A stretch of 64,000 nt of DNA from Faecalimonas sp. (GCA_045629665.1 JAZQRQ010000073.1:7892-71891), one strand, 5' to 3'; positions 1,188 to 17,607 are shown, counted from the stretch's first letter. Numbers and translations are program-made. Notes: generated by a model from the sequence alone, not told the origin.

Positions 1188-1646
1188 CTAAACCACTTGC
1201 TTCAATATCTGATAAATGGCCCTTCCATCCTCTCGTCCAAATTCATGCAATGAACCCGTATACAGAATTCTTGGCGTTTTCATGTCTTGCTTCTCTATGA
1301 ATTTTAAAATATTATCCGTTTTTTCTTCGTATTCTGTTCCCTCAAAAGTTCTTATGATTTTATTTACAAATTCCCTGTGTTCTTTTATTCTCGCTTGCTC
1401 CGAATCTATATTCAGGCTTCTCACTTTCTCATGTATTAACCTTCTGCGAGTCACATCCTCTGGTGCGTTTAATGACAACAGTGCGTTTTCTATCATATCT
1501 ATGTACTCCGCACGAATCTTTTCACAACTCTGACTATAAAAAATAACAAGCGTATCGTTTTCTTTTAGATATTCCGCACCTTTGAGTCCGTCGGTTGTAA
1601 ATACATTCTCATAATCTACCAGTATTGTTGCCAATGATTTCACCAC
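1188..1646 (-). CDS. PIN-like (NYN/PIN7-type) domain protein, probably internally deleted
   Basis: N-terminal ILVDYENV...GLKG...LVIFYS fits PIN-like domains; the central KNALDF-type segment expected in this family is absent. Confidence 0.5.
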   Translation of the reverse strand: MVKSLATILVDYENVFTTDGLKGAEYLKENDTLVIFYSQSCEKIRAEYIDMIENALLSLNAPEDVTRRRLIHEKVRSLNIDSEQARIKEHREFVNKIIRTFEGTEYEEKTDNILKFIEKQDMKTPRILYTGSLHEFGREDGRAIYQILKQVV

Positions 1647-1655
1647 CTTATTGTT

Positions 1656-2647
1656 TTATAAAATTTCAATTTCTTTATTGACTAATCTATTTAATATACC
1701 CTTTACAATTATTTTGTCCTCTATCTTGTTAATGGCGAAGCACTTTTTTCCCGCATCTTTCAATGATGCACCAATATGATACACACATTTTTCATCTAGG
1801 ATTAAAAACCTATCGTGAAACACGTTTGTATAACTTACCTCTAGTGATGGATATTGGTGATTAAAGTTATCTATATCTTCTTGAGACAATTTTGTTTTTT
1901 TTAACGTATACATAAGTACCTCTACGTTAGGATTCTTTTTGGCCAAAATATTCAAGGTTCCAATATCAACATAATTGTCTATCAGTACGATTGTCTTTTC
2001 TGCTTTGGATACTAATTGGGTGAGCAAACTAAACGCATCATATATTTGTCCTTCGAAGAAGATTTTTTGAGATACTTCTTTGTGTTCGGATATATAATTA
2101 AAAATTTCTTCGAAATTTTTTTCTGTTTTTTCTTCAAATTGTTGCCTTTTTATGTCTCCCTCAATTTGCATACTTTCTAACTGATTTACCTTCTCCAATA
2201 AAAATGTATCATGTGCTAAATATCGTCGCATCTCCACAAAAGTTTTCATAATACGTACGCTAACTTTCACCGCAATTTCACTTCTCAAAACAGCAGAAAG
2301 CATTGCTATTCCTTGTTCCGTATAAACGTATGGTAATTTTCGTCTACCCCCATACCCATTATCCTCTCTTTGAAAACTTGAAGTTCCAAATTGGAACTTC
2401 AAGTTTTCATACTCCGCTTTTGTTAACTGAAAACAGAACTCTTCAGGAAAACGATTTATATTTCTCTTCATTGCCTTATTTAGGTTTTTGTCTCTACTTG
2501 ATACAAAACTGCTAAATCACTATCTAGCATTACCTGTTGTCCGCGTACTACATATATTAAGTTTTTAATTGTTTTTTCTGTAATTTCCAAATTAGCTAAC
2601 GGTTCTTCCTCCTGAATTACAACTTCCATCTTTTCTTTCTCATCCAT
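1656..2647 (-). pseudogene. ORF6N-domain protein with C-terminal PLD-like motif, split by a 1-nt frameshift
   Basis: Frame from ATG 2647 (after GAAAGGGG RBS) gives ...NLIYVVRGQQVMLDSDLAVLYQVETKT*; the adjacent frame continues LNKAMKRNINRFPEEFCFQLT. The break is in an A5 run (T5 at 2485-2489). C-terminus has FHDRFLILD...GASLKD. Confidence 0.85.
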
Positions 2648-2794
2648 ATTTGCTTCCCCTTTCTTTTTTGGGTTGAAATTTAAAACCTCAAGTTTTTAAA
2701 TTTCATCTCTGCTCTATCAACAAACAAAGCCGCAGCAATTGCCACGGCTTCATTCTATAATTAATGCCTGTGTTACCAACATTTTTTCACTCAT

Positions 2795-2858
2795 AAAAAA
2801 ATCCTCCCTGAAATTTGTCTCTAAAGTTTTATCTCTAAAAACAATTTTAAGGGAGGAT
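2795..2858 (-). terminator. Long imperfect inverted repeat, probable terminator of the XRE gene
   Basis: ATCCTCCCTGAAATTTGT (2801-2818) vs ACAATTTTAAGGGAGGAT (2841-2858), followed by T6 on the minus strand. Confidence 0.55.
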
Positions 2859-2891
2859 ATTACATTTGTCATTGAACTTGTAGTTCAATTT

Positions 2892-3212
2892 TTATGCAGC
2901 ACGTAGCGCATTTAATTTTTCATAATACGCATATAATCTTCTATCACGCAAATCAAGCGTTTCTAATAAGATGCTTGGTACAATCGGTGCTCGATTACCA
3001 CGCACAATTGCATCAATTGGTAATTGGAACAATGCGCTAAGAGCGTATAAATTATCAATCGTTGGCATATTGACGCCATCAATCCAACGATATACACTCT
3101 GCACACACCCTAAGCCAAGATATTCCTGCACGTCCCTTGCAGTTATACCACGCTCATCCATAATTCTGCGCAAATTAATTCCTGTTTCTCGTTTGTTGAT
3201 TAATGGGAACAT
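2892..3212 (-). CDS. XRE-family helix-turn-helix transcriptional regulator
   Basis: GINLRRIMDERGITARDVQEYLGLGCVQSVYRWIDGVNMPTIDNL HTH pattern; ATG 3212 after GAAAGGAAGG. Confidence 0.85.
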   Translation of the reverse strand: MFPLINKRETGINLRRIMDERGITARDVQEYLGLGCVQSVYRWIDGVNMPTIDNLYALSALFQLPIDAIVRGNRAPIVPSILLETLDLRDRRLYAYYEKLNALRAA

Positions 3213-3238
3213 ATAACACCTTCCCTTCCTTTCTGAAA

Positions 3239-3973
3239 TCATATTGTAAAACTACCGATATAAGCATATCCTTTTAATTCCTTCGCGCTGTCTGCCTTGA
3301 AGAAACGGAACGTATCTTCATTTGCAACGTACATATGCGCCAACGCGATACCCATGTCAATCTGATTCATGTCGCCAAGCACTTTCGCCTTAAACAATCC
3401 CTGAAGTGCGCAGTATGCGTGGATGGTGTCGCCCTCGTGAGTGAAATACCACGGCTGACTGTTTACGCTGGATGGCGCAAATCGTGCCGGCTCCAGTCTC
3501 TCGTCCTGCTCATCGGAAATTTCCGCAAGGCTCTTACGCTTGAACTCGCCGGTTGAGCCTCGATACAATTCACCCTTCGGCTCACCAAACGCTAACATCA
3601 TAACAAATTCAAGACCGTCATCATTTTTCGTCTCGACAATACCTTGTGCGCTGAGTTTGCCCATTCCGAGCCAGCATACTCCCAAACCGATGCTGTGCAG
3701 GTAAAGGTCGAGTTGTTGGAACATGAAACCAACATTTACTAAGGCACCCTCTTTGTCCTCCGTGAAAATGGTGATTAACTGCGGCGTTGTCCATGGGCAA
3801 ATGCATTTCACATTTTCCCTGCTGACAATCTCCGAACGCACCCTGATGTCCGGATATAATAGTTGAATGGTTGTTGTAAATTCTTGTATCTTTTGAATTG
3901 TCGCTTCGTCCACCGGGATGTTCGTGTAACTGCGGGTGGATTTGCGACAGTAGATTAAGTCTTTTAGGTTCAT
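3239..3973 (-). CDS. Nitroreductase family protein
   Basis: IYCRKSTRSY FMN-binding start, GLGVCWLG, and FAPSSVNSQPW motif. Confidence 0.85.
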   Translation of the reverse strand: MNLKDLIYCRKSTRSYTNIPVDEATIQKIQEFTTTIQLLYPDIRVRSEIVSRENVKCICPWTTPQLITIFTEDKEGALVNVGFMFQQLDLYLHSIGLGVCWLGMGKLSAQGIVETKNDDGLEFVMMLAFGEPKGELYRGSTGEFKRKSLAEISDEQDERLEPARFAPSSVNSQPWYFTHEGDTIHAYCALQGLFKAKVLGDMNQIDMGIALAHMYVANEDTFRFFKADSAKELKGYAYIGSFTI

Positions 3974-4017: not shown

Positions 4018-4773
4018 TTACTTCTTATATTCTTCGCACTGGTATCTTGGCTTACCCTGGCTGCGTTTTCCATATTCAATCGCCTCCGTCGGACATCCGC
4101 AAATGCACGCCATGCAGTGCGTACACGCATCGCCCCACACCGGCTTGCCATCCTTTATGGAAATGTTGTTTAGCACGCACACCTTCGCACATTTCCCGCA
4201 TCCAATGCAGGCGTCCGTTGTATAAAATGACTTCGCCTTGACAAATAACTTGTAGAAAATTGGGTTGAGTGGTCCAGATTTGAACTTATCCGCCAAATTC
4301 ACCTTCGGTTCAAGGAAACGCTCTCCCTTTCGAACCGTTCTGACCACCTTTAAAAGCGAGCGTTTCGCTACAAACACAATGCGTTTCGCAAGCTCCGGCT
4401 GTGGCACCTCAAACATCGCAATGTAGTTCTCCGGCATCACCACCGGCAAAACGCCTCGGTAATTCAATCCTACTTCCTCGCATAATTTCGCAATCTTCTC
4501 ACTCGCATTTCCGATGTCGTTGCCGCAAGTCATCACAAAATACGCTTCCTTGCAGCCCTCGAAACGCGCCGTCCGAATAAATTCTTCGAATACGTGTGGC
4601 AATTGCCAGCAGTACGTCGGCGACACAAACACCCACGGCGTCCCCGAAACCAACTCCGCCGCGATTCCGTTTTTAATATGGTAAAAAGAATCAAATAATT
4701 CTTCCTCTAACTTGTCCGCAAGCATCTGTGCACAGTATCTGCTGTTGCCTGTTCCTGAAAAATAGATGATCAT
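4018..4773 (-). CDS. EFR1-family ferrodoxin (flavodoxin plus 2x[4Fe-4S])
   Basis: YFSGTGNS flavodoxin loop; CIGCGKCAKVC and CTHCMACICGCP ferredoxin motifs. Confidence 0.9.
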   Translation of the reverse strand: MIIYFSGTGNSRYCAQMLADKLEEELFDSFYHIKNGIAAELVSGTPWVFVSPTYCWQLPHVFEEFIRTARFEGCKEAYFVMTCGNDIGNASEKIAKLCEEVGLNYRGVLPVVMPENYIAMFEVPQPELAKRIVFVAKRSLLKVVRTVRKGERFLEPKVNLADKFKSGPLNPIFYKLFVKAKSFYTTDACIGCGKCAKVCVLNNISIKDGKPVWGDACTHCMACICGCPTEAIEYGKRSQGKPRYQCEEYKK

Positions 4774-4887
4774 GTTAGTTCTCTCCTTTGTGGTGCACTT
4801 GTGCCCCGTGGAAATATCTGTATTTGTTTGCTACTATAGCGTACTTTAACTCAAATGACATTTTACGAATACTTTCGTATGTATACA

Positions 4888-5682
4888 TTATGCACCTCGA
4901 AAAATCACATCATTATGATATTCTATAAACTGACGTCCTGGATAAAATCTATCTGGTAGAATAATTTGTTTACCTTCATAGGAAAGCAACCATTCCTTTG
5001 ACTCTTTATCCATATCTGCATCCTTCAACACCTTCGAATTGAGAATGCAATAGTTTTTATCAATAGTAATCAACCCTTTATCAAAAGCCTTGTCATGGAG
5101 AGCATTGAGACACAGTCCATTGCTAGGATTGGTTCTTTCAGTCTTTTCATCACTATCTAGCCATGGTTTAATATGACTAGCAATTAAAACATTTGGCAAT
5201 TCCATTCCTGTGACACAACATCTATTCCTGTATGCAGAAAGTACCGACATTCTAAAGAAGTATTGCCCCACTCTTGCCTTCATTGCTTGTTCACGATATT
5301 TACCATCTGGCAGTTTCACTATTTCTTCTACATCGTCAATCTCGGCAACTTCTTCAATCGTCGTTTGACTCATCTTAGCTTTAATTATTTGTGCCTGATA
5401 AGATAACTCTGTCCAATCTTTAGCAAATTCTTGAAATATTTCTCCATCTAGCTTGCTAGCATTCGACATCCCAGAAACATTCCTTGCTCTTAATTCGGGG
5501 TCAAAATGTGCAAGATTCGCCATTTTCAATCCTACAGAACTAGGTGTTCTTCCTAGCAAGTTAGCCAATGCAATAATATCCTTATTTGCTTTGCTAATCT
5601 TTGAAAAGGGTATTTTACAGTATAAATCAAAAGCTAAAATTGTTTCTTCTCTAGTCCATTTTACACGATATTTTTCTGCCAT
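4888..5682 (-). CDS. HNH endonuclease (putative restriction endonuclease)
   Basis: RCCVTG...LIASHIKPW...NPSNGLCLNALHDKAFDKGLITID HNH signature; N-terminal WTREETILAFDLY helical domain. Confidence 0.85.
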   Translation of the reverse strand: MAEKYRVKWTREETILAFDLYCKIPFSKISKANKDIIALANLLGRTPSSVGLKMANLAHFDPELRARNVSGMSNASKLDGEIFQEFAKDWTELSYQAQIIKAKMSQTTIEEVAEIDDVEEIVKLPDGKYREQAMKARVGQYFFRMSVLSAYRNRCCVTGMELPNVLIASHIKPWLDSDEKTERTNPSNGLCLNALHDKAFDKGLITIDKNYCILNSKVLKDADMDKESKEWLLSYEGKQIILPDRFYPGRQFIEYHNDVIFRGA

Positions 5683-5714
5683 ACATTCACTCCGTATTTA
5701 ATAAACAATAAATT

Positions 5715-6647
5715 TTACATTTCTATTGGTTCATGATAGTTACACTTAGTTCTATCAAAGTAACCTTCGCATCCCCAAAACCAATTGTATCCACGCCTTA
5801 GCACTAATGTCCTTCCACAGTTCGGACATTTTCTTTTTAAACGCACAGATGCTCTCTCATCAATACCCTCTCTTATATTCGGAGTATAAATCTCCGGCAT
5901 GGAATGCATGTTCCCTGTTTGAAAATAATAATTTTCTGCATCCATTTTTGTTCTTCCATTTAACATCGCACTTTGTGGTATAATGCGCCCTTCTTTTATT
6001 AATTTAACTAGTTCGCTATGATAAATAAAGCCCGGAAAATCATATGTCCAATTTTTTCTATAAATAGTTTCAATCAAAATATCCCTGATATTACTTGGAA
6101 TTTCATTTTCTCTTTGATATAGAAGCTTTTTCTCTTTCATCAACCCTTCACCATCTGGTGTGAATCTAACCAACACAGTATAATCGTATTTGGCTGTTCC
6201 TTCCAAAAGATTTGGGATGTACTCTCCTTTTTTATTCCAATCTTTGGTTTCCAACAGCAATAAATCCCCATATGATTTTGTTGATTTTACAGAAAAATGT
6301 TTACCTTGACAATCCAAATCAAAGGAATCCCATTTGCCCAACTTATATTCTGAAATATCCGGTTTGTCTACATCTATATGACGACTTGTTAAATAGCGAT
6401 ATAGCGCAAACTCCGCCATTTTCCCTTGAAAAGTATTGATGAATATTTGCCCCATTGTTCTATGCATCACTCCACCACTTCTGGAATCTCTGTGGGCACC
6501 CTTTTTCGCATAAGACATATTATAGGCAAAATTAAAACATTCTCCTTTGTCTGATTGTAGCATAGTTGCATATGCCAAAAAGTGTTTCTTTTTTTGTACG
6601 TAGTAGTTATTTAACTCTATACGAAGTTCACCTGCTTCATAATCCAT
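5715..6647 (-). CDS. Putative PD-(D/E)XK restriction endonuclease with C-terminal C4 zinc ribbon
   Basis: QGKMAEF...WDSFDL...SVKSTK fits a PD-(D/E)XK core; C-terminal CPNCGRTLVLRRG...FWGCEGY...C resembles the topoisomerase-type zinc ribbon; 13 nt downstream of the C5 MTase. Confidence 0.55.
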   Translation of the reverse strand: MDYEAGELRIELNNYYVQKKKHFLAYATMLQSDKGECFNFAYNMSYAKKGAHRDSRSGGVMHRTMGQIFINTFQGKMAEFALYRYLTSRHIDVDKPDISEYKLGKWDSFDLDCQGKHFSVKSTKSYGDLLLLETKDWNKKGEYIPNLLEGTAKYDYTVLVRFTPDGEGLMKEKKLLYQRENEIPSNIRDILIETIYRKNWTYDFPGFIYHSELVKLIKEGRIIPQSAMLNGRTKMDAENYYFQTGNMHSMPEIYTPNIREGIDERASVRLKRKCPNCGRTLVLRRGYNWFWGCEGYFDRTKCNYHEPIEM

Positions 6648-6660
6648 TTACTTTTTCCTC

Positions 6661-7629
6661 TTATACACAACTCTTATATGCTTCTGCTATTTTTCCTGCT
6701 ATACGCTGTATTACCGATACACACACAGAATTACCAGCCTGCTTGTATAATCTCGCATCGCTCATATCGGTTGGTAGTTTGAATTTTTTAGGAAATCCCT
6801 GTGTGTTAAAACATTCATGCGGAGTCATTTTTCTAATTCCATGCATTGTTTTTATCAAGCATACATTATGACCACCTTCACCCTGATTTGCCGTAAGTGT
6901 AGGAACTACTCCACTTTTATTTTTTCTTACATATTTTCTTCTCCACTGATAAATAGCATTTTCATCATCCATTGCTTCGACAAGCTGTTTGTATATATCT
7001 CCTTTGTATTTTCCATCTGTATAATAATATTTTTCATCGACTAAATTTTTGAAATCAATAATATCAGAAAGTTTCTTTTTCAATGGTACAGGTAAAGGAA
7101 ATTCGAAGCTCTTATATTGTTCAATATCTTTGAAAGCCACAATATAGATTCTTTCTCTATTCTGTGGAATGTTTCCATATTCCATTGCATTTAAAACGGC
7201 ATATTTTACATGATAATTTTCTTTTTGTAATTCATCTACAATGACTGCAAAGGTATTTCCATTGTCATGTCCAACCAAATTCTTTACATTCTCCAAAAAA
7301 ACTATTTGAGGCTGCTTTGCTTTTATTATGCGTACCAATTCAAAAAACAAGGTCCCCCTACCTTTTTCATCATCAAATCCTTTTCTATATCCTGCAACGC
7401 TAAATGCTTGGCAAGGAAAACCAGCTAACATCACATCGAAATCCGGTATTTCTTCATTCTTTACTTCATGTATATCCCTACAATCTACCTTAACCTTGCT
7501 ATTTAACTCATAAGTCTTTACTGGATATGGATCAATTTCGTTTGCATAAATAACTTTAAATAATTTTGCACTCTCGAATCCAATATCTATTCCTCCCACT
7601 CCAGCGAAAAAGGATGCACATCTCAACAT
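6661..7629 (-). CDS. DNA (cytosine-5) methyltransferase, Bsp6I/LlaDII/NgoFVII-like (GCNGC/GCSGC family)
   Basis: Motifs FAGVGG, GFPCQAFS, ENVKNL, QNRERI, QAGNSV; target region YQWRRKYVRKNKSGVVPTLTAN closely resembles M.Bsp6I as recalled. Confidence 0.92.
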   Translation of the reverse strand: MLRCASFFAGVGGIDIGFESAKLFKVIYANEIDPYPVKTYELNSKVKVDCRDIHEVKNEEIPDFDVMLAGFPCQAFSVAGYRKGFDDEKGRGTLFFELVRIIKAKQPQIVFLENVKNLVGHDNGNTFAVIVDELQKENYHVKYAVLNAMEYGNIPQNRERIYIVAFKDIEQYKSFEFPLPVPLKKKLSDIIDFKNLVDEKYYYTDGKYKGDIYKQLVEAMDDENAIYQWRRKYVRKNKSGVVPTLTANQGEGGHNVCLIKTMHGIRKMTPHECFNTQGFPKKFKLPTDMSDARLYKQAGNSVCVSVIQRIAGKIAEAYKSCV

Positions 7630-7659
7630 AAATAATTCCTCCTAAATTCAACTACTGAT

Positions 7660-7688
7660 ATCATACCAAAAATCGCGGCGCGCCGCAA
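7660..7688 (-). promoter_or_regulatory. Sigma-A promoter of the C5 MTase overlapping a palindrome of two GCSGC sites
   Basis: Minus strand TTGCGG (7688-7683), 17 bp, TG-n-TATGAT (7665-7660); perfect palindrome GCGGCGCGCCGC at 7675-7686. Confidence 0.75.
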
Positions 7689-7720
7689 TGAATTTTTATA
7701 AAAAAGAAGACCAGATTTCC

Positions 7721-8935
7721 CTAGTCTTTTTCCTCTCCGTAAAATTGTTCATATGTTCCTACTTCAGCAAAATCAATTGAATAATCCAATTCTGCATTTT
7801 TAGTAAAAATAACACTGTCAACACCGAACAACTCCAACATTTCATATGTAATAACTGTACCTTCAGGTACTTCAAAAACATCTCTTAACAACCATTTCCC
7901 GAGCACCTTGTTTGGATTGCTCATTACCGATTTCCCAACCAACGCATTGTTCTTGTCTGCCTCTTGACATACCTTTGCAGATATTGCGGTTCCATCCGGC
8001 AAATGCAAAGTAAATGGAGTATCTCTTGGTGGAAAGAAAATTAAATCTCTTTGTCTATCTACCGCCTGATAAGGAATGTATATTTCATTTACATCTCTCG
8101 CTCGACCAGCTGCATTCCATTGATTTAATCCACTCTTTTCTGCAACAAACTTTTCTTTATCAGGTCCTCTTCTGGAATACAATGGCAAGCACAACATTGG
8201 TTTGTTATCCATTTTCATTTTTGGTATCGCCTCAAATTCTTTTACAATGCCTTCTCTATTAGTTAGCCAATCAAATTTAGGGTTACTTCCCGAATTTGAA
8301 CGCGCGAAAGATAGTAAAATTCTATAAGGATCTTCTACTACATTTACCTCAAATGAATCTAACAATTTTAAGTCATCAAATATCATATATAATGTGTTCT
8401 TTGACACACTGAAATGATATGTATGCTGTCCATCTGTAAAATATGTGTTATTATCATTGCCCCTATTAGGAATTATTTTAATGGAATCTATATCAATATA
8501 ATCAAATGCACATTCTAAAATTTGCATCATGTTTGGAACACGCTTGACAACATGATATATCATCTGTTCTATACCATGAAGCCTTTTAGTAACCCTTATT
8601 CTCTCATTTCTATACTCAGCAATTCTTTTTACAAGTTCAATCCCTGTAAGTTCTGAATAATTCTTCTTCAGTTTACCAAACTCTGCTACCTTCTGGTCAT
8701 CATTTCCAGTCCATGTTTTGAGTCCAATTCCAATACCATCTTTTTTAGCATCGGCAGAACAATCTGAACGCGCTAGGTTTTCAGCTTCTAAATATCTGCA
8801 GAAAATATTTTCATGCGCTCGATATGCCAAATATGGACAATCACTTTCAGAAAAGAGATTTGACAACTGTCCCATTATTCGAAGCATTTCTTTGTAATTT
8901 TGTTTATTTAAAAAAGGTTGTTTATCGTAAAACAT
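7721..8935 (-). CDS. NgoFVII-family restriction endonuclease (PD-(D/E)XK domain plus B3-like domain)
   Basis: LSNLFSESDCPYLAYRAHENIF, SADAKKDGIGIGLKTW, KSGLNQWNAAGRARDVNEIYIP, SNPNKVLGKWL; ATG 8935 after GAAGGAG. Confidence 0.8.
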   Translation of the reverse strand: MFYDKQPFLNKQNYKEMLRIMGQLSNLFSESDCPYLAYRAHENIFCRYLEAENLARSDCSADAKKDGIGIGLKTWTGNDDQKVAEFGKLKKNYSELTGIELVKRIAEYRNERIRVTKRLHGIEQMIYHVVKRVPNMMQILECAFDYIDIDSIKIIPNRGNDNNTYFTDGQHTYHFSVSKNTLYMIFDDLKLLDSFEVNVVEDPYRILLSFARSNSGSNPKFDWLTNREGIVKEFEAIPKMKMDNKPMLCLPLYSRRGPDKEKFVAEKSGLNQWNAAGRARDVNEIYIPYQAVDRQRDLIFFPPRDTPFTLHLPDGTAISAKVCQEADKNNALVGKSVMSNPNKVLGKWLLRDVFEVPEGTVITYEMLELFGVDSVIFTKNAELDYSIDFAEVGTYEQFYGEEKD

Positions 8936-9206
8936 ATCGCCTTCTCCTTTCAGATGTTTCAACACAACTTGTTTTTTTATTTTAACACTTGTACTAATAT
9001 TTAGCAATCTCGTATCTTTTCAAAACATTTATTCAGATTATTCTTTTATATGAAAAAGTAGAATCGAATATAAATAAATTTTCTATAACTACTGCACCCA
9101 AATGCTAGACTAAAACGATTTTCGTTATAATGTAAATTGTACGCCAAAAATCGTTCGTTCACGTGTCTATATATAATATAAACCTATAAAAAGGAGGTGA
9201 ATTCAA

Positions 9207-9611
9207 ATGGCTCAAGCAGGCGATAGATATATTGTAGAACTAACCCCGTCTCAACTGGGGTGGGGCGAAGAACGATATACTAATTCCAGACATACGAGAC
9301 AAGGTGAGGCCTATCTAGCAATACCTCGTAGATATGCTAAAGCATACAATTTATTTAATTCAAACCACACAAATGGACAGGACCTTCTTGGAACAAACAT
9401 TTATAACTGTATAAGTGTGGACGGCTTTCTAAATGACCAAGTAAAATCTCAAGGTTGCGTTCATGAAGGCGATGAATTCGCAAAGCAATTTGCAGGTAAT
9501 AATAATCTCAAACTTCTCGGCGATTGGTATAAACACATGCAAGCTGATGTCGGTGATAAGGTCGAAGTATATTTTCTTTCCCCTATTGATATTCAGCTGA
9601 CACTATTGTAA
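9207..9611 (+). CDS. 134-aa protein, putative stand-alone B3-like DNA-recognition domain
   Basis: Strong RBS AAGGAGGTGA and own terminator; motif order parallels the C-terminal domain of the neighbouring NgoFVII-family nuclease. Confidence 0.6.
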   Translation: MAQAGDRYIVELTPSQLGWGEERYTNSRHTRQGEAYLAIPRRYAKAYNLFNSNHTNGQDLLGTNIYNCISVDGFLNDQVKSQGCVHEGDEFAKQFAGNNNLKLLGDWYKHMQADVGDKVEVYFLSPIDIQLTLL

Positions 9612-9618
9612 AATTTTT

Positions 9619-9660
9619 CGGCTGTCGTTTAACAAAACACCTTGTTACGACAGCCGTTTT
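9619..9660 (+). terminator. Intrinsic terminator
   Basis: CGGCTGTCGT (9619-9628) / ACGACAGCCG (9647-9656) followed by TTTT. Confidence 0.8.
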
Positions 9661-9896
9661 ATATAATTTTATTTGATTTTAGTGTGTTCCTTCTGTGAGG
9701 TTGTAGCCTTGCATGAGTTTCTCATCCTACATACGAAAATAAAATTTATTTATTATTCCAAAAAGCATGCCGTATCTCCAGTTCTACTACAAAGCAACAA
9801 ATTGATTATCAAACCGATACATATAAAAAATAGGGGGTTTTAGCACACCAATGACTGTAGAGCTATTCAATGGAGTCATGTACTATTTTCAAAATA

Positions 9897-11297
9897 TTAA
9901 TCATCACATTCTATAACATTTGTAGATTTCGTTGTTTTTACAAACACTAATATATGCTCTCTCGTCATTGTTGTTTGTGGTTCTTTTTTTTCACCAACAT
10001 AAGAACTTATTTCCGGCATCCTTTTATTATGAATTTTCCTTGTAAAACTCGTCACTAAAGATAACTGGTACTGCGAACAAAGTTCAATCATTATATTGTT
10101 CATGAGTATTTCTTTTTTCGCAATTTTCCTATTCCCTAATGTCCACACCGAAACTGAGTTTTGTTTCATTTTCTTAGACAGCACAGACAAGAATAAATCA
10201 TAATCGCTATAAAAAGCGATAAGTTTGTTAACCTGTTTGACCGCACTTGCTTCAATTTCATTGCAGTGACTTTTTAAAGTACGTGATTTTCCCAACACGC
10301 TTTTTCGTCTTCTTGTCATACTTTTGTTTGCGGATTTACCACCCAACGATGCATTGTCAATTCCACATAAAGTGGATAATAAATCTTCGTCAAAATCATC
10401 ATCAATGTCAGAGCAATCAATCCACCTTAATGGCATAACCGAATATTGTCCATATGAAACCGTAGTGTGATTATCCCCATAAGGTGGCGAGGTCAAAACC
10501 AAATCAAATTTTTGCTTTGTATGTTTAAGATAAGTAATTGAATCCGACAAAACAATTTTTATGTTTCCCTTGTACGAATTCCCGTCTTTTTTAAGGTTTC
10601 CAGAAGTTTTCAATGTACTATAAAACGAGAAATATTTCTTTTCATTGTAGTTTAATGTTTTCAAAAAAAGCTCTATTGCGTCTTTATTATAATTAGCAAT
10701 ATCCGTTTTTTCTTTAATATGCAATTTATAGGTACAATCTCTAGAATTAGACACTATTCTGACAATTTCACAAAATGTTGCCCAAAAAAAGCGTCTAACA
10801 TTTATATCGTTATCTTTAATAATAGCTTCACGGAGAATTGTTAAGTCTTTTACGGCTTGTTCCGTAAACCATTTGTCGATTCCCTCAAAAGAATGTCTTT
10901 TTATTGAAGACGTCCTCAGAATATCGATTTCCTCTTTCAATTTTTTTACATGTTTCTCTAATATCTCGGGATTAATTATTGTTGTTTTAACTTTGCAGAG
11001 TAAAACTGCAAGTGGATTGATATCTATTCCAACTATATCAAGTCCTTTCAACATTCCTTCAACTAAAACAGTCCCTGATCCGGCAAATGGATCCAATAAT
11101 TTGAGACGCTTATTATTAGACTGCTCAAGACACACTTCTAAAATTTCCCTTTGCATTTTAGGAACCATCATAGCAGGATAAGTACAAAACCCATGAACAT
11201 AATCTCGCTCACTTTTTCTTTTTCCGCGATAATCCCAACGATCTTCAGATTCCAAAGTGAGTTGCTTAAACCTTGATTTAATATATTCAATACTCAT
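9897..11297 (-). CDS. N4-cytosine DNA methyltransferase, M.MvaI-like
   Basis: YPAMM, LDPFAGSGTVLVEG (motif I), TSPPYGDNHTTVSYGQYS (motif IV SPPY), RKIHNKRMP; same blocks as recalled for M.MvaI. Confidence 0.85.
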   Translation of the reverse strand: MSIEYIKSRFKQLTLESEDRWDYRGKRKSERDYVHGFCTYPAMMVPKMQREILEVCLEQSNNKRLKLLDPFAGSGTVLVEGMLKGLDIVGIDINPLAVLLCKVKTTIINPEILEKHVKKLKEEIDILRTSSIKRHSFEGIDKWFTEQAVKDLTILREAIIKDNDINVRRFFWATFCEIVRIVSNSRDCTYKLHIKEKTDIANYNKDAIELFLKTLNYNEKKYFSFYSTLKTSGNLKKDGNSYKGNIKIVLSDSITYLKHTKQKFDLVLTSPPYGDNHTTVSYGQYSVMPLRWIDCSDIDDDFDEDLLSTLCGIDNASLGGKSANKSMTRRRKSVLGKSRTLKSHCNEIEASAVKQVNKLIAFYSDYDLFLSVLSKKMKQNSVSVWTLGNRKIAKKEILMNNIMIELCSQYQLSLVTSFTRKIHNKRMPEISSYVGEKKEPQTTMTREHILVFVKTTKSTNVIECDD

Positions 11298-11323
11298 TTT
11301 ATCACCATCACGAATTTTAAAAA

Positions 11324-11352
11324 ATTATACTTTTTGATATATAAATTGTCAA
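11324..11352 (-). promoter_or_regulatory. Perfect consensus sigma-A promoter for the N4C MTase
   Basis: TTGACA (11352-11347), 17 bp, TATAAT (11329-11324) on the minus strand. Confidence 0.85.
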
Positions 11353-11383
11353 TAGAATATGAAATAACAAATGAATCAACTTG

Positions 11384-14194
11384 TTATTTTCTGTCATGAT
11401 AACAAGCACCATAAAATTCACACTGGATATTTTTACAAAAATCCTGATTTTTATTTTTGTCTACTTCAAATACCTTCTTATAATCATTCGTCTTAATAGT
11501 CTTTTCACATTCTCTTAATTTTTCGTTAAATGTATCTCTATCATCATCTAACAATTCAATTGTAGTAGGATTACTATTATTAAAATCATAAGATTCAATG
11601 TAGTCGACTTTTTCTCCAGTCAAGCTCTCGTATCCCAATACATATACCATTAATTGATTTTTTATTTGACTCTTAGTTAATACTTCGCTACTGGATTTAA
11701 AATCCACAAGAGTAATTGTGTGATTTAATTCATCTCTAACAAGATCTATTCTTCCATTGATAAACATATATTCATCAACACTAAAATCAATACTCTTCTC
11801 AGAAAACTTAATATACTTAAATCTAGAAGCATTGTTCTTAATATAGGAAGTCAGATTTCTCATTGCCTTTTCAGTCATTGCCTCATACAGTTTTGGAGAG
11901 CCGTATGGCAGATGTAAGTATTTTTTTACAATACTTGCAATAACCGTAGGATCATTATAACTAATTGTTTCATAGTTTTTGTGAATGTAATCTAACATAT
12001 TGTGGATTGATCTACCATAACCCATACGAATATTTAGAGGAGAACAAAAACCATATATATTAGTCATTTTGAATTTGTATGGACAATCAAACAAATCCTT
12101 AAGCAAGGAGAAATTCAATGTGATAATTTCATCCGCGGAGAATTTGGCTTTATTACTTTTTTCATATTCCTTGTCCAAATAGAGGCGAGTTTCTTTAAAA
12201 GGCGAATTCTTAGTCTCTACAAACGGAAATGCTGGAGCTTTATAATGTGTTTTCCCACTATCTGAAATATGGTTAGACCGAGTAAGAAAAAGAAACTTTT
12301 CACTTCTAGTCATTCCGACATAAAACACTCTTCTAATACTTTCGTCATCATCTTCATACTGTTGTTTTATTGTATTGTCATCTATGATCCCCCAAGCATT
12401 TAGACCACCAGGATTTCGTTGCGGAAAAATTGAATGTTTTGTTAAAAAAGGCATGAATACTACTGGATATTCCAATCCTTTAGATTGATGAAATGTCATA
12501 ATCCTTAAACACTTTACAGCCTTGAAATTAGGCGACAACCAACCTTCCGGATATATTTCTGGAGCCTCAAGAGTCAAAAAAGTCTCAAATGCTTTCAGTC
12601 TATATGAAGGAACCATATCAAGATTAATTTTTTCAAAATCATTAATCATCTCCGTAAACTTGCCCCAATTGTAAAGAATCTTTTCATCTGCAACACAGAA
12701 TAACTGTAAATCCATAAACAATTTTCTGATTGAACCTTGAATAGTATATTCATAATCATCCGATTCAAAAGGCAATTTTGTAAATTCTTCGATACTCTCT
12801 TTAATCTTATCTCTGCTAAGTGAAGTATATTTACACCATCTTGCTACAAGTTCAACAGGTACACCTGACACTTTGATCTTTTTCATTGTTTGTTCTTTGT
12901 TTGGCCCTTTATGATCAAATACAATCCGAGAAAAAATCAAAGAAAGTGTATCACATAAAATCATAATTTCGTCAGAATTAAACAAATTCTTTGTTCCTTC
13001 AACAATAAAGTCAATATTATTTTTTTCGAGTTCAGTGATTAATTCAGGTATTCTCTTTACAGAACTAACAAGGATAACCATATCGTCTAGATCCAATCTA
13101 AACTCTACTTCCTTACGTACATATTTACATCCAATCAATTGTTTGATTTTATTTACAATAAAATCAACTTCTGAGGCCCGATTGTCGAACTCATATGTAA
13201 TTATATCTCCTAGTTCATATTGTTGACTTTCGTTACTTTGCATGTTTTTTGCTATACGATTATTATTTTGGTTTATGACCTGCTTTGAAATTTCAGTAAT
13301 ACCCTTACTGCTTCTAAAATTGATATCTAAATCGATTTTTTCAACATTGGCATACGAATTAGCAAAGTTTTTTATGAAATTCAAATTGCTACCACGCCAT
13401 TGATAAATAGTTTGATCATCATCTCCTACAACACAAACAATTGCCCCTTGTTCAGAAAAGTACTTTATAATTTTTTCTTGTGCATCATTTACATCTTGAT
13501 ACTCATCAACTATTAAATATTTAATTTTTTTTGCAATAAAATCATCAAAAACACCACTCTGAAGTTTAGTGAGTGTAGTTGAAATAATGGAAGTGAAATC
13601 GAAAAATTTATTTTTTATTAACGTGGTTTCATACTTCTTGATATGTCCTTGAAGAACTGCGTCAAGTTTTTCTACCCCATGCTCTCTTCCAATGTCAAGA
13701 AACGTTTTATAGGCATTAATTGCTTTTGTTTTTACATCTGCCCTACTCCCCTCATTGAAAAGCTGATATGTTGTGCCATTAACTGCATGATATTTAACAT
13801 CATAAATACCATTTTCTCTGCGGTATCTCTTTATAAACAACTTAGTTTGAACATCATTTAGTGTTTCAAATGTTTTATATTCATCAGAAAACTCTTGCAA
13901 CATGTAAAGACAAAAACCATGTATTGTTCCAATATACATATTTGCAAGTCCCTCAAGAGAATGCTGTTGCTTTTCATAAGCTTCAAATACTTTTTGCTTT
14001 AACGAAGCCGCTGCTTTTTCTGTATAGGTAATAGCCACGATATTTTCAGGCTCTATACTAGGTTCATTAAGTAATTGAAGAATATGCGCAACCATAGTAG
14101 AAGTTTTTCCCGAACCTGCACAAGCAACTATTTGCATATTTTGACCAATTGTATTAATAGCTTTCTCTTGATTTTTCGTCCATTTTGTACTCAT
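11384..14194 (-). CDS. UvrD/REP-family SF1 helicase with C-terminal PD-(D/E)XK (RecB/Cas4-like) nuclease
   Basis: ACAGSGKT, LIVDEYQD, VGDDDQTIYQWRG, NFRS, MTFHQSKGLEY, RVFYVGMTR; nuclease GRIDLV...LVDFKSS...QLMVY; Cys in DCPYKF plus CKNIQCEFYGAC. Confidence 0.9.
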   Translation of the reverse strand: MSTKWTKNQEKAINTIGQNMQIVACAGSGKTSTMVAHILQLLNEPSIEPENIVAITYTEKAAASLKQKVFEAYEKQQHSLEGLANMYIGTIHGFCLYMLQEFSDEYKTFETLNDVQTKLFIKRYRRENGIYDVKYHAVNGTTYQLFNEGSRADVKTKAINAYKTFLDIGREHGVEKLDAVLQGHIKKYETTLIKNKFFDFTSIISTTLTKLQSGVFDDFIAKKIKYLIVDEYQDVNDAQEKIIKYFSEQGAIVCVVGDDDQTIYQWRGSNLNFIKNFANSYANVEKIDLDINFRSSKGITEISKQVINQNNNRIAKNMQSNESQQYELGDIITYEFDNRASEVDFIVNKIKQLIGCKYVRKEVEFRLDLDDMVILVSSVKRIPELITELEKNNIDFIVEGTKNLFNSDEIMILCDTLSLIFSRIVFDHKGPNKEQTMKKIKVSGVPVELVARWCKYTSLSRDKIKESIEEFTKLPFESDDYEYTIQGSIRKLFMDLQLFCVADEKILYNWGKFTEMINDFEKINLDMVPSYRLKAFETFLTLEAPEIYPEGWLSPNFKAVKCLRIMTFHQSKGLEYPVVFMPFLTKHSIFPQRNPGGLNAWGIIDDNTIKQQYEDDDESIRRVFYVGMTRSEKFLFLTRSNHISDSGKTHYKAPAFPFVETKNSPFKETRLYLDKEYEKSNKAKFSADEIITLNFSLLKDLFDCPYKFKMTNIYGFCSPLNIRMGYGRSIHNMLDYIHKNYETISYNDPTVIASIVKKYLHLPYGSPKLYEAMTEKAMRNLTSYIKNNASRFKYIKFSEKSIDFSVDEYMFINGRIDLVRDELNHTITLVDFKSSSEVLTKSQIKNQLMVYVLGYESLTGEKVDYIESYDFNNSNPTTIELLDDDRDTFNEKLRECEKTIKTNDYKKVFEVDKNKNQDFCKNIQCEFYGACYHDRK

Positions 14195-14544
14195 AATACA
14201 ATCTCCTTTCTAACATTAAATTTAATTATATTTGTTATAAAAAAGCAAGGCAAACCAAGGGCACTCACGAACCCTTAATCACCTTGCATCGATAACCTCC
14301 CTTATATCCTAACACACTTTCTCCAAAAAATCGACAATTATTTCCTTATTCTATCTGTTTTCTCACACTACGCCACGTCCACTTCCACAATTTTTGTCCT
14401 GAATTTGCCCTAAAACTCTCTTGTCAATCTCTACAATCCTTAAAAAATCTAGCCTTTTCACCATACTATCAGATTGCTGCCGCAGCATATAAATAACACT
14501 ACACAACAAACACACATTATTTTCGCTTCATATCTCCCGATTGT

Positions 14545-14598
14545 ATTTAGTCGCAATCCTTCCAAATTTAGTCGCAATGTTTTCAATTTAGTCGCAAT
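14545..14598 (+). repeat. Three direct repeats of ATTTAGTCGCAAT
   Basis: Exact 13-mers at 14545, 14566 and 14586; degenerate ATTTAGTCCGC at 14647. Confidence 0.9.
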
Positions 14599-14632
14599 CT
14601 ACCTCCAATTACCCCTTTTATGCCGGCTTTCG

Positions 14633-14884: not shown

Positions 14885-16012
14885 CTACTCCTCCCCCTTC
14901 TCAAACGCCTCTGCTACCCCCACCAGCAACTCTCTTATCCCCAAATGCTGCGGGCACACTTTCTCACACTTTCCACACTTCACGCAATCCGACGCCTTCC
15001 CGCCATTTTGCGTATGGATATCATAATACCATCCGCTATTCCAATTGTTGTGGATTGTCTTCGCATTTAGATCTGAGAACAAATCCGGAATCGCAATCTT
15101 CTGCGGGCACACATCCATGCAATATTTACATGCGGTACATGGAATAAGTCCCTGTGCACTGATAATATCGCGCACTTTGAAAACCGCGGCAAATTCTTCT
15201 TCGCTCAGCGGTTTGAAATCTTTCATGTAACTGAGATTATCTTCCATCTGTTCCATATTACTCATGCCAGAGAGCACCATCATCATGTTGTCGAAGCTTG
15301 CCGCAAATCGAATTGCATAACTTGCGTTGCTTCCGCCGCCAAGGTCATCGAATATCTTCTGTGCTGCCGTAGGAAGTTCCACGAGGCTACCGCCTTTTAC
15401 CGGCTCCATGACGATGACAGGTTTGCCGTGTTTTACGCACACTTCATAGCATTTTCTCGATTCGATTCCCACATCATCATAGTCCAGATAGTTGAATTGA
15501 ATCTGCACGACTTCGATTTCCGGGTACTCGGTCAGTATCTGCTCCAGCACCTCGGCTTTGTCGTGGAAGGAGATGCCGACATGCTTTACTCTTCCTTCTT
15601 TTTTGAACTCAAAAGCATGCTCGTAGGCTCTGCATTTTTTGTATTTTGCAAAGAATTCTGCATTTTGCGCATGCAACAAGTAGAAATCAAAGTAATCCAC
15701 ACCACAGGCTTCCAATTGCTTTTCAAAAAGCGGTACGATTTCTTCTTCTTTCTCGAAAAAATATGTAGTCAATTTATTTACTAAAATGTAATCTTCTCTC
15801 GGATAGCGTTTCACAAGACATTCGCGAAGTGCCGGCTCGCTTTTCTCGCCGATATAACCGTGAGCGGTATCAAAATAGTTGAAACCATTTGCCATAAATG
15901 CATCTATCATCTTGCAGGTTTCCTCATAATCCACTTCTTTCCCTTTCATTGGGAAACGCATGCACCCGAATCCAAAATTCCCTTTAATGTCATCAAAAAA
16001 TTTATTTTTCAT
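14885..16012 (-). CDS. Aldo/keto reductase with C-terminal 4Fe-4S dicluster
   Basis: GFGCMRFP, NYFDTAHGY, DYFDFYLLH, VMEPVKGG; CTACKYCMDVCP and CVKCGKCEKVCP. Confidence 0.92.
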   Translation of the reverse strand: MKNKFFDDIKGNFGFGCMRFPMKGKEVDYEETCKMIDAFMANGFNYFDTAHGYIGEKSEPALRECLVKRYPREDYILVNKLTTYFFEKEEEIVPLFEKQLEACGVDYFDFYLLHAQNAEFFAKYKKCRAYEHAFEFKKEGRVKHVGISFHDKAEVLEQILTEYPEIEVVQIQFNYLDYDDVGIESRKCYEVCVKHGKPVIVMEPVKGGSLVELPTAAQKIFDDLGGGSNASYAIRFAASFDNMMMVLSGMSNMEQMEDNLSYMKDFKPLSEEEFAAVFKVRDIISAQGLIPCTACKYCMDVCPQKIAIPDLFSDLNAKTIHNNWNSGWYYDIHTQNGGKASDCVKCGKCEKVCPQHLGIRELLVGVAEAFEKGEE

Positions 16013-16182: not shown

Positions 16183-17607
16183 ATGAAGAGAACAGCTTCA
16201 GACATTATGAAAATGATTCAGGAACAGGGCATCAAGATGGTTGACTTTAAAATCGTTGACATCAACGGCCAGTTCCGCCACGTAACCATTCCGGCTTCTC
16301 AGTTTACGGAAGGCACGATGAAGAACGGAATCGGTTTTGACGCTTCGAACTACGGTTACGCTGTGGTTGAGAAAAGTGACATGGTATTTATCCCGGATTT
16401 GGACACTGCAGTGACCGACCCATACTGCGAAGTGCCGACATTATCCATCACAGGTAATGCGATGATTATCGACTATCCGGAAAACCGTCCTTTGGATCAA
16501 TATCCAAGAAACATTGTACAAGCTGCTGAGCAGTACATGAAGGACTGCGACATCGCGGACACAATGTTAATCTTACCGGAATTTGAATTCCATATGTTTG
16601 ACCAGGCTGGTTGGTCAGTGTCTCCGGACTCTATCGGATTTTCCGTTGACTGTGAGCAGGCTTACTGGAACAGTGCTAATCAAGGACTCGGCTGTGTCGT
16701 TCCTCACCAGAAGAACTACCACGTTGCGAAACCATTTGACAAAACATACGAATGCCGTTCGGAAATGTGCTTAGAATTAGAAAAAATGGGTATCGAAATC
16801 AAATACCACCATCCGGAAGTTGGAGCTGCCGGTCAATTTGAAATCGAACCGATGCTTGGACAAATGTCTAAGATGGCTGATAACACAATGATGATTAAAT
16901 ATGTCATCCACAATACAGCACAGAAATACGGCATGACTGCAACATTTATGCCAAAACCGGTTTATCAGGAAGCCGGAAACGGAATGCATGTACATATGTT
17001 GTTATTGAAGGACGGAGAGCCTGTTTTCTCTGATGATGAAGGCTACTCACACCTCAGTGAAACAGCTCACTACTTCATGGGTGGTTTGCTGAAACATATT
17101 TCTTCACTCTGTGCTATCACGAACCCAAGTACCAACTCATTCAAGAGACTGGTTCCTGGATTTGAAGCACCGGTAACTGTTGGTTATGCGACATCTAACC
17201 GTAGCGCAGTTATTCGTATCCCTGCATATGCAAAATCTCCGAAACTTCGTCGTTTCGAGATTCGTAACCCGGATGCAACTTGTAACCCATACCTTTGCTA
17301 CGCTGCTCTTCTTATGGCAGGTATCGATGGTATCAAGAATAAGATTGACCCACATGCAAACGGTTGGGGACCATACGACATGAACCTCTATTCATTGTCA
17401 CCGGAAGAGAAAGCAAAATTATCTTCTCTCCCAACACGTTTGGAAGATGCTTTGGATGCACTCGAAGCTGATCATGATTACTTGACAGCTGGCGGAGTAT
17501 TCCCGGAACACTTAATCAAGAACTTCATCGCTATGAAGAGAAAAGAGTGCTTCGAGATGTCTAAGATTCCACATCCGGCAGAGTTTGACAGATATTTCAA
17601 CTTATAA
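16183..17607 (+). CDS. glnA: Glutamine synthetase type I
   Basis: FDASN, HHPEVGAAGQFEI, FMPKP...GNGMHVH, NSFKRLVPGFEAP, NRSAVIRIP, RFEIRNPDATCNPY. Confidence 0.95.
   Translation: MKRTASDIMKMIQEQGIKMVDFKIVDINGQFRHVTIPASQFTEGTMKNGIGFDASNYGYAVVEKSDMVFIPDLDTAVTDPYCEVPTLSITGNAMIIDYPENRPLDQYPRNIVQAAEQYMKDCDIADTMLILPEFEFHMFDQAGWSVSPDSIGFSVDCEQAYWNSANQGLGCVVPHQKNYHVAKPFDKTYECRSEMCLELEKMGIEIKYHHPEVGAAGQFEIEPMLGQMSKMADNTMMIKYVIHNTAQKYGMTATFMPKPVYQEAGNGMHVHMLLLKDGEPVFSDDEGYSHLSETAHYFMGGLLKHISSLCAITNPSTNSFKRLVPGFEAPVTVGYATSNRSAVIRIPAYAKSPKLRRFEIRNPDATCNPYLCYAALLMAGIDGIKNKIDPHANGWGPYDMNLYSLSPEEKAKLSSLPTRLEDALDALEADHDYLTAGGVFPEHLIKNFIAMKRKECFEMSKIPHPAEFDRYFNL

Follow-up and report, generated by a model that had tools for sequence, protein, structure and literature searches.

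A 9.3-kb island at positions 4888–14194 of a 64,000-nucleotide stretch of Faecalimonas sp. DNA (GCA_045629665.1, JAZQRQ010000073.1:7892-71891; the whole stretch is called the window below) appears to be a mosaic in which three independently mobile modules occupy one variable slot of the chromosome, and not a single defense system. We put the probability of this reading at roughly 0.7. Seven intact, full-length open reading frames (ORFs; g1 to g7) were confirmed within the island. Module A is made up of g7, a helicase–nuclease, and the methylase g6; module B comprises g5, g4, g3 and g2, of which g3 is a C5 methylase; and module C is the HNH nuclease g1. The original prediction, made from the sequence alone, had reported seven ORFs at these positions and had described them as a composite defense island with more nucleases than simple restriction–modification (R-M) pairs require. 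All of this held up. Defense islands are known as mosaics, and a composite nature is in itself ordinary.

Proposed modular composition of the island

Domains were called with Pfam, NCBIfam and PADLOC profiles, and AlphaFold2 (AF2) models were searched with Foldseek. Subsets of the island genes do co-occur in other genomes, where they recur as separate modules. Among the loci examined (labeled L031, L032 and so on), the only gene combinations that crossed module borders were g1 with g5 in L138 and a g1-like HNH gene near a g7 homolog in L031. Because the modules recur apart from one another, and because a terminator and separate promoters split the block, we read the island as three mobile modules stacked together. 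What was observed directly is the domain content, that the catalytic motifs are intact, and that each module recurs alone. The surplus of nucleases would then arise because a single methylase family has two nuclease families as partners, alongside an accessory HNH protein and an autonomous helicase–nuclease/methylase pair. The original prediction had also proposed that most of the island might be one or more uncharacterized systems. Some of it is uncharacterized, but the seven genes recur as three modules and not as one set. Not all of the genes map to described systems, and several components lie outside the named ones: PADLOC gave no match for g2 or g5, and for g7 only GajB-like helicase matches.

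An integrated multi-component system made of all seven genes seems very improbable. The genes are contiguous, mostly on the same strand, and lie in a single low-GC block, but the modules almost never share a locus (L138 and L031 being the exceptions), the block is partitioned by its terminator and separate promoters, and every module has been found alone elsewhere; the neighborhood data largely refute such a system. Scarcely more probable is that the surplus nucleases are functionless, decaying remnants of dismantled R-M systems. Two observations would fit decay: neither the island nor the rest of the assembly has vsr, which usually partners g1, and g4 homologs are fragmented in L038 and L077. 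However, all seven ORFs are full length and have kept the invariant catalytic residues of their respective families. Two further points weigh against the three-module reading itself. The context sampling was seeded on g2, g1 and g5, and the counts run one way, from seed gene to partner. Moreover, all activities, specificities and partnerships of the island genes are inferred. What the three-module reading offers is a set of recurrent modules, each with defined partners and mutable catalytic residues, in place of a vague notion of too many nucleases.

Table 1. Genes and other features of the island, with positions counted from the first letter of the window.
Feature	Position	Strand	Description
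g1	4888-5682	-	264 aa; Pfam HNH_2 E 3e-13; PADLOC HNH PDLC04132 E 4e-88
g2	5715-6647	-	310 aa; sole match a weak Zn_ribbon_Top1, E 3e-5, under the Pfam cut-off
g3	6661-7629	-	322 aa; C5 DNA methylase PF00145 E 2e-89; TIGR00675 E 2e-101
g4	7721-8935	-	404 aa; RE_NgoFVII_C (PF20731) E 1e-8; PADLOC REase_II PDLC03479 E 2e-83
g5	9207-9611	+	134 aa; RE_NgoFVII_C 26.4 bits (cut-off 23.8)
g6	9897-11297	-	466 aa; motif I DPFAGSG (residue 69), motif IV TSPPYGDN (residue 270); PDLC03322 E 5e-88
g7	11384-14194	-	936 aa; UvrD-helicase E 3e-52; PDDEXK_1 (PF12705) E 1.5e-14
Palindrome ATTGCGGCGCGCCGCGAT	7672..7689	-	18 bp; over the -35 box (TTGCGG) and spacer of the g3 promoter
Terminator-like hairpin 3' of g4	7707..7728	-	9-bp stem followed by a T run
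Terminator hairpin 3' of g5	~9619-9656		
Sigma-70 promoter TTGACA-17-TATAAT in the g7-g6 spacer	11324..11352	-	12/12 consensus matches; consensus match only

The helicase–nuclease g7 and the methylase g6

The protein encoded by g7 is a superfamily 1 (SF1) UvrD-type helicase fused to a PD-(D/E)XK nuclease of the RecB/Cas4/AddB type with a four-cysteine cluster of the iron–sulfur (Fe-S) type. Its nearest solved structure is PcrA. Across 114 homologs, the Walker A and DEYQD motifs, D817, D831-x-K833, Q847/Y851 (QxxxY) and the cysteines C704/C920/C925/C931 are 99–100% conserved. Clustered at 90% identity, homologs of the nuclease region make up at least 183 groups, every one of which shares this fusion architecture. 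The distribution of g7 is sporadic: none of the 12 genomes sampled from the same family has it, and a relative was present in 1 other genome among 399 of the class. No g7 relatives were found in phage records.

A g7-like gene was paired with a g6-like methylase in all eight independent contexts: the window, L031, L032, L033, L160, L187, L188 and L189. The seven contexts beyond the window carry g7 homologs at 49–72% identity, and in them a methylase of ~440 amino acids (aa) starts 6–37 nt after the helicase–nuclease. L031 is an Anaerolentibacter hominis chromosome, while L032 is an element with PcfJ/PcfK/ArdA and an rve-family integrase (transposase-type), and L033-L035 and L187 are elements with ParAB and a type IV secretion system (T4SS). 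The pair lies downstream of a type III R-M system on a viral contig in L160, downstream of a type I HsdR in L188, and downstream of a type III Mod-DUF2971-Res set in L189. None of g2 to g5 was found in these seven contexts. The sole island-like gene there was a 317-aa HNH_2 gene located 1.4 kb upstream in L031, which is 37% identical to g1 over the HNH part.

The partner methylases all carry DPFxGSG about 190 residues ahead of TSPPYG(D/E)N, and a g6 homolog at 64% identity has the UniRef name 'cytosine-N4-specific'. By its SPPY motif, g6 is probably an N4-cytosine enzyme, and it is the putative partner of g7. The N4C label in the original prediction therefore stands as far as the amino-methyltransferase motifs go, with the N4C part of the call depending on the SPPY motif. 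With the consensus promoter in the g7-g6 spacer, transcription of g6 would not have to depend on g7.

We regard g7 and g6 as a candidate for a self-contained, ATP-driven R-M unit. The SPPY methyltransferase g6 would mark host DNA, probably as N4-methylcytosine, and the long region between its motifs I and IV would supply sequence recognition. The motor–nuclease g7 would translocate on DNA without the g6 mark and degrade it. Together, the two would act like a type III (Mod/Res) enzyme, but on an SF1 helicase. Judging from domain content, they share the logic of the EcoP15I-type enzymes, with specificity residing in the methylase and with an ATP motor and a PD-(D/E)XK nuclease joined in one polypeptide. 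However, the motor of g7 is SF1 (UvrD/PcrA-like) and not SF2 (ResIII), and its nuclease is of the Cas4/AddB Fe-S type. Unlike a type III Mod, g6 has neither TypeIII_RM_meth nor EcoP15I_C and shows the motif order I ... IV with SPPY; true Mods were recognized in L160 and L163. The gene order of the island also differs, with the nuclease preceding the methylase. The other named system to compare is Gabija, since the best PADLOC matches of g7 are GajB profiles (E 2e-56). These matches cover the helicase part only, g7 has an extra nuclease domain, and there is no GajA (ATPase-Toprim, OLD family) gene in the island. Our literature searches found no experimentally characterized system that combines a UvrD-nuclease with a methylase.

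Several observations weigh against a strict g7-g6 unit. Close homologs of g6 (62–64% identity) pair with a GHKL ATPase and not with g7, and the methylases that adjoin g7 homologs are only 31–37% identical to g6. The pairing is therefore modular and not strictly co-evolved. Such exchange of methylase and restriction modules is what would be expected if the methylase carries the specificity. In addition, on plasmids, distant relatives of g7 (26–34% identity) are neighbors of HNH genes and of complete type II systems with a C5 methylase; here, g7 could likewise cooperate with module B. Other distant homologs, from the genome sample, were found in DISARM-like, Gabija-like and type III settings; these were left out as evidence for the pair.

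The GHKL-associated methylases, 62–64% identical to g6, belong to a conserved operon (L170-L172, 5755-11675; L168, 6001-11653). Its order is an HTH_3 gene (78 aa; in L170-L172, not in L168), the methylase, a GHKL/HATPase_c_3 gene (~850 aa) and an unknown gene of ~577 aa. L170-L172 are integrase-bearing elements from human gut metagenomes and L168 is from Desulfosporosinus lacus. The operon represents a MORC-like R-M arrangement and uses the methylase family of g6.

The family to which g7 belongs has been discussed before. The passages on UvrD-Cas4-like fusions in Hudaiberdiev et al. (2017, BMC Evol Biol 17:232; PMC5704561) describe them as monophyletic and as located by type III Mod/Res or Dcm/Vsr genes, and propose an ancillary defense role; the link to restriction genes was made in silico. 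In those passages the fusions resemble g7 in architecture (SF1 UvrD plus a PF12705 Cas4/AddB-type nuclease and a Cys cluster) and in genomic association with R-M genes. They do not describe what was seen here in 8/8 contexts, a tight pair formed with a dedicated SPPY methylase of ~440 aa. Our literature searches found no experimental work on the family.

That proposal leads to a different explanation, in which g7 is an ancillary helicase–nuclease that processes DNA ends made by neighboring enzymes, here g4 and g2, so that modules A and B work together. By degrading cut DNA as RecBCD or AddAB does, it would amplify restriction. In keeping with such a role, Priestia and Vibrio plasmids have distant homologs bordering complete type II systems of the C5-methylase kind, the g7 pair comes after type III genes (L160, L189) or type I genes (L188), and UvrD helicases are fused to g2-like domains in L041 and L059. 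We nevertheless think it unlikely. The g7 subfamily (at least 49% identity) always has its own methylase, which an end-processing enzyme would not need. Furthermore, the L032, L033 and L187 stretches have no other R-M genes, and L031 has only an unpaired HNH_2 gene nearby. Slightly less likely again is that g7-g6 serves mobile-element maintenance or anti-restriction, with an orphan methylase that shields the transferring element and a repair or recombination helicase–nuclease that travels along. The perfect consensus promoter that g6 has to itself fits this idea, as do several copies that lie close to ArdA, ParAB and T4SS genes in the backbones of plasmids or conjugative elements, but such elements commonly carry defense systems. 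The operon order is tight in every context, including chromosomal defense islands and positions next to type I/III R-M genes, and the nuclease and Fe-S motifs are strongly conserved, neither of which favors a maintenance role. If the g7-g6 pair does restrict DNA, an SF1-helicase-based architecture would join the known translocating restriction enzymes.

The C5-methylase cassette and its B3-like proteins

The simplest and most widespread pair of the island is g2 with g3. Relatives of g2 were located at 38 genome loci, and 33 of these had an adjacent g3-like C5 methylase. Many Flavobacterium genomes carry a bare convergent g2/g3-like pair, which is the classic type II layout. The trio of g4, g3 and g2 was present at about 13 loci in two phyla (Lachnospiraceae, Flavobacterium, Chryseobacterium), and g4 accompanies g3 at these loci and also in L076. 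By these neighborhoods, the g3 family appears to be partnered by two nuclease families, g2 and g4. The methylase itself is intact, with FAGVGG (motif I), PCQ (IV), ENV (VI), QNRER (VIII) and GNSV (X) all present. After the methylase, related loci have other extras: a GIY-YIG protein (PADLOC candidate PDC-S14), an SF1 helicase or Vsr. The PDC-S14-matching GIY-YIG protein lies between the methylase and the next gene in L076 (2919-3845) and L039 (7016-7954).

No model in Pfam, NCBIfam or PADLOC covers the core of g2. This core is ~245 residues long in the family, and the C-terminal C4 zinc ribbon was seen only in the Lachnospiraceae versions. E79, D107, D110, K121 (within S/A-V/I-K) and E133 are invariant in the family alignment, and the AF2 model has a predicted local distance difference test score (pLDDT) of 90.8. 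We consider g2 to represent an undescribed family of putative type II restriction nucleases, probably with a PD-(D/E)XK core. The invariant residues make the original assignment to PD-(D/E)XK plausible. On the other side, a Foldseek search with the g2 model gave no significant match, which leaves the support for this fold weak; PD-(D/E)XK enzymes, namely EcoRV, Hjc, ThaI, BglI and a SPARDA nuclease, do occur among the top weak matches. The family of g2 is a widespread family of putative restriction nucleases that annotation pipelines miss. Domains of the g2 type also occur at the N-terminus of a UvrD helicase (L041 7995-11159, 1054 aa) and of a DEAD + UvrD double helicase (L059 7950-13508, 1852 aa), both next to g3/g4 homologs.

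The palindrome ATTGCGGCGCGCCGCGAT contains two of the island's three GCSGC sites. It is kept with identical -35/17 nt/-10 geometry 5' of the g3 homologs in L036, L038, L039, L059 and L063, and the spacers around it differ among these five related loci. Another related locus, L045, has a nuclease of the Bsp6I family (GCNGC). From the conserved promoter palindrome and this nuclease, we infer that g3 is specific for GCSGC or GCNGC and that its promoter is subject to methylation feedback. The methylase would then protect the host from two sequence-specific nucleases, g4 and g2, and would regulate its own expression via the two target sites inside its -35 region. In CfrBI-type control, methylation of promoter sites governs the expression of a type II R-M system, and the predicted target sites over the -35 box of g3 suggest similar feedback. 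As a point against this, ATTGCGGCGCGCCGCGAT also scores as a terminator-like hairpin, and the element could act as a hairpin as well.

Homologs of g4 begin MFY..., which places the start of g4 at 8935; a TTG at 9007 over-extends the ORF. The N-terminal domain has no HxK/GSxN motif; its invariant residues are E42, D62 and K73. When g4 was compared by hhalign with canonical NgoFVII proteins (from L106 and relatives, each followed by a Z1 ATPase), only residues 243–371 aligned (probability 83%). We rejected a PLD enzyme of the NgoFVII/CglI type for g4 because there was no PF09565 match, no HxK motif and no alignment outside the C-terminal domain. Its sequence features instead suggest a restriction-type nuclease with a non-PLD catalytic domain and a C-terminal B3-like DNA-binding domain. 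A B3-like pseudobarrel reader joined to a separate nuclease domain is also the design of EcoRII/BfiI-type enzymes. The modular design of g4 is the same, but its catalytic domain (E...D...K) is unclassified, and the island encodes a free-standing B3 reader, g5, as well. In the proposed mechanism, the B3-like reader and the non-PLD catalytic domain of g4 would together make up one sequence-specific nuclease of the cassette. The hairpin 3' of g4 is predicted to divide g4 from the g3-g2-g1 transcription unit.

The original prediction had called g4 an NgoFVII-family nuclease and had seen in g4 and the C5 methylase a known type II arrangement. Neither claim survived. NgoFVII/NgoAVII/CglI enzymes need a PLD R-protein and a DEAD-Z1 ATPase (PMC4267653, PMC5861437). 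The island does share several features with NgoAVII/CglI (PMC4267653, PMC4267654, PMC5861437): g4 and g5 have the B3-like domain of R.NgoAVII, the methylase is of the C5 kind, and its promoter contains GCSGC sites. However, PLD was absent from g4 and Z1 (PF10593) from all seven island proteins, whereas the same search detected Z1 in L106. With no PLD domain and no DEAD-Z1 motor, g4 falls outside the NgoAVII/CglI family.

The small protein g5 has its own ribosome-binding site (RBS). Its family comprises 209 representatives among 1.84 billion proteins, mostly of 125–145 aa. Homologs always adjoin C5-methylase cassettes, as in L036, L038, L045, L052, L074, L076, L077 and L138; they are often next to vsr, and the nuclease types alongside vary. 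The likeness between g5 and the B3 domain of g4 is weak but consistent, given the Pfam score of 26.4 bits and an hhalign match (E 2.5e-4, probability 43%). The original description of g5 as a lone B3-like protein was right in that it is a real stand-alone protein, but it belongs with the C5 cassette and not with the N4C/helicase pair. We rejected g5 as a partner of g6 and g7 because it is absent from all g7 loci, and as a decayed fragment of g4 because BLASTP found no similarity, g5 has its own RBS and terminator, and the stand-alone family is conserved.

A g5-type domain forms the N-terminus of AAA_15/AAA_21 (ABC/OLD-type) ATPases (P0339, P0356, P0390 and P0401; 638–656 aa). Together with the cassette contexts, these fusions suggest that g5 has a DNA-sensing role in defense rather than being a plain controller protein. 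Although g5 sits in a controller-like position, its domain is B3-like and not helix-turn-helix (HTH), and no shared operator was evident upstream of g5 homologs. As a free B3-like reader, g5 may act as the cassette's sensor of DNA state or as its regulator.

The HNH nuclease g1 and the setting of the island

A metagenome scan returned 475 relatives of g1, and the best 80 loci were analyzed. Of the 72 loci whose downstream sequence was long enough, 37 had vsr as the next gene, at a gap of 4–17 nt (12 of 26 when non-redundant). A C5 methylase was present in 42 of the 56 loci that had sufficient sequence upstream (13 of 18 non-redundant). Translational coupling with vsr is usual in the g1 family, whose members stand at the tail of such cassettes. 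Restriction components of several unrelated kinds lie upstream of g1 relatives: FokI/AlwI-like, HpaII, MutH/Sau3AI-like, canonical NgoFVII with Z1, AIPR, DUF6339 and PDC-M33. Since HNH proteins that are 52–79% identical cannot fit all of those specificities, g1 looks like a specificity-independent accessory of C5-methylase/Vsr (5-methylcytosine) cassettes. In L083 (2120-5974), components of the PADLOC candidate PDC-M33 lie upstream of an HNH-vsr pair. In L106 (2961-6762), a g1-type HNH gene comes directly after a canonical NgoFVII (PLD + B3) and its Z1 ATPase; the g1-type HNH therefore rides on ATP-dependent CglI/NgoAVII-type systems too.

H170, N188 and N193 of g1 are invariant and H196 is nearly so. 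The AF2 model (pLDDT 88) gave significant Foldseek matches only to VcaM4I and TagI, on the HNH part, and its N-terminal 125 residues are all-helical with only weak HTH/SANT-like fold matches. VcaM4I (EVE-HNH, 6yex) and TagI (SRA-HNH, 6ghs) are modification-dependent enzymes that have the HNH_2 domain in common with g1; they were the only significant matches by sequence or fold. Where they have EVE or SRA, g1 has the helical HTH/SANT-like N-terminus, and its relatives are embedded in C5-methylase/Vsr operons.

These comparisons make a type IV-like back-up nuclease the leading candidate for g1, though with somewhat less than even odds. Such a nuclease would attack cytosine-modified DNA that escapes the type II enzymes. 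It counts against this role that g1 has no recognizable modified-base reader of the EVE, SRA, SBD or PUA-like kinds, as carried by type IV modification-dependent HNH enzymes (VcaM4I, TagI, ScoMcrA). A part in very-short-patch repair, as a partner protein, is distinctly less likely, and a role of some other sort a little less likely than that. Least likely of all is the role of a cognate type II enzyme. Relatives accompany C5-methylase/Vsr cassettes whatever their specificity, and homologs 52–79% identical to g1 follow methylases and nucleases of unrelated specificities, which makes g1 an improbable cognate nuclease of g3. We also rejected g1 as a replacement for Vsr, given that vsr usually comes right after g1 relatives. 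The genome has the C5 methylase g3, yet no vsr remnant was found in the island and no Vsr was detectable anywhere in the assembly (G000); most related cassettes carry Vsr.

The island lies between housekeeping genes, with a flavodoxin/4Fe-4S (Fer4) protein (4018-4773) on one side and an aldo-keto reductase (14885-16012) and glnA (16183-17607) on the other. GC content falls from ~44% outside to 30–36% over 4500–14500, and the insert has 32% GC. The host assembly (1.63 Mb in 99 contigs) is a small gut-type Bacillota genome, and relatives of the island genes come mainly from Lachnospiraceae and human-gut metagenomes. We looked for a tRNA, an integrase and flanking direct repeats at the island borders and found none. 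In two congeners, no island gene adjoins the aldo-keto reductase ortholog; a clean empty site was not demonstrable in congeners because synteny is too eroded.

Two other features of the surroundings were recorded. The non-coding stretch of 690 bp that separates g7 from the aldo-keto reductase gene contains three tandem copies of ATTTAGTCGCAAT(C/G) at 14545-14599, spaced 20–21 nt, which may form an array of protein-binding sites or be left over from the element that carried the island in. There is also a second small islet of low GC (1188-3242; 32–36% GC), with an ORF6N-domain protein, a 152-aa ORF of unknown kind and an HTH_3 protein; two genes of 45% GC (nitroreductase and flavodoxin) lie between it and the main island.

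The widest reading of these data is that the island holds a new ATP-dependent R-M class, combining an N4C-type methylase with an SF1 UvrD/Cas4-type Fe-S nuclease, and in addition g1 and g5 as specificity-independent accessories of 5-methylcytosine cassettes. We hold this reading tentatively, at odds of about one in three. Module A and the accessory idea for g1 and g5 are the parts that merit work at the bench. If true, g7 with g6 would add a fourth design for translocating restriction enzymes to types I, III and ISP and CglI. Likewise, g1 and g5 would read the state of DNA (modification, damage, unmethylated sites) and not its sequence. As generic accessories of C5 cassettes, they would mean that common type II systems carry an overlooked second layer.

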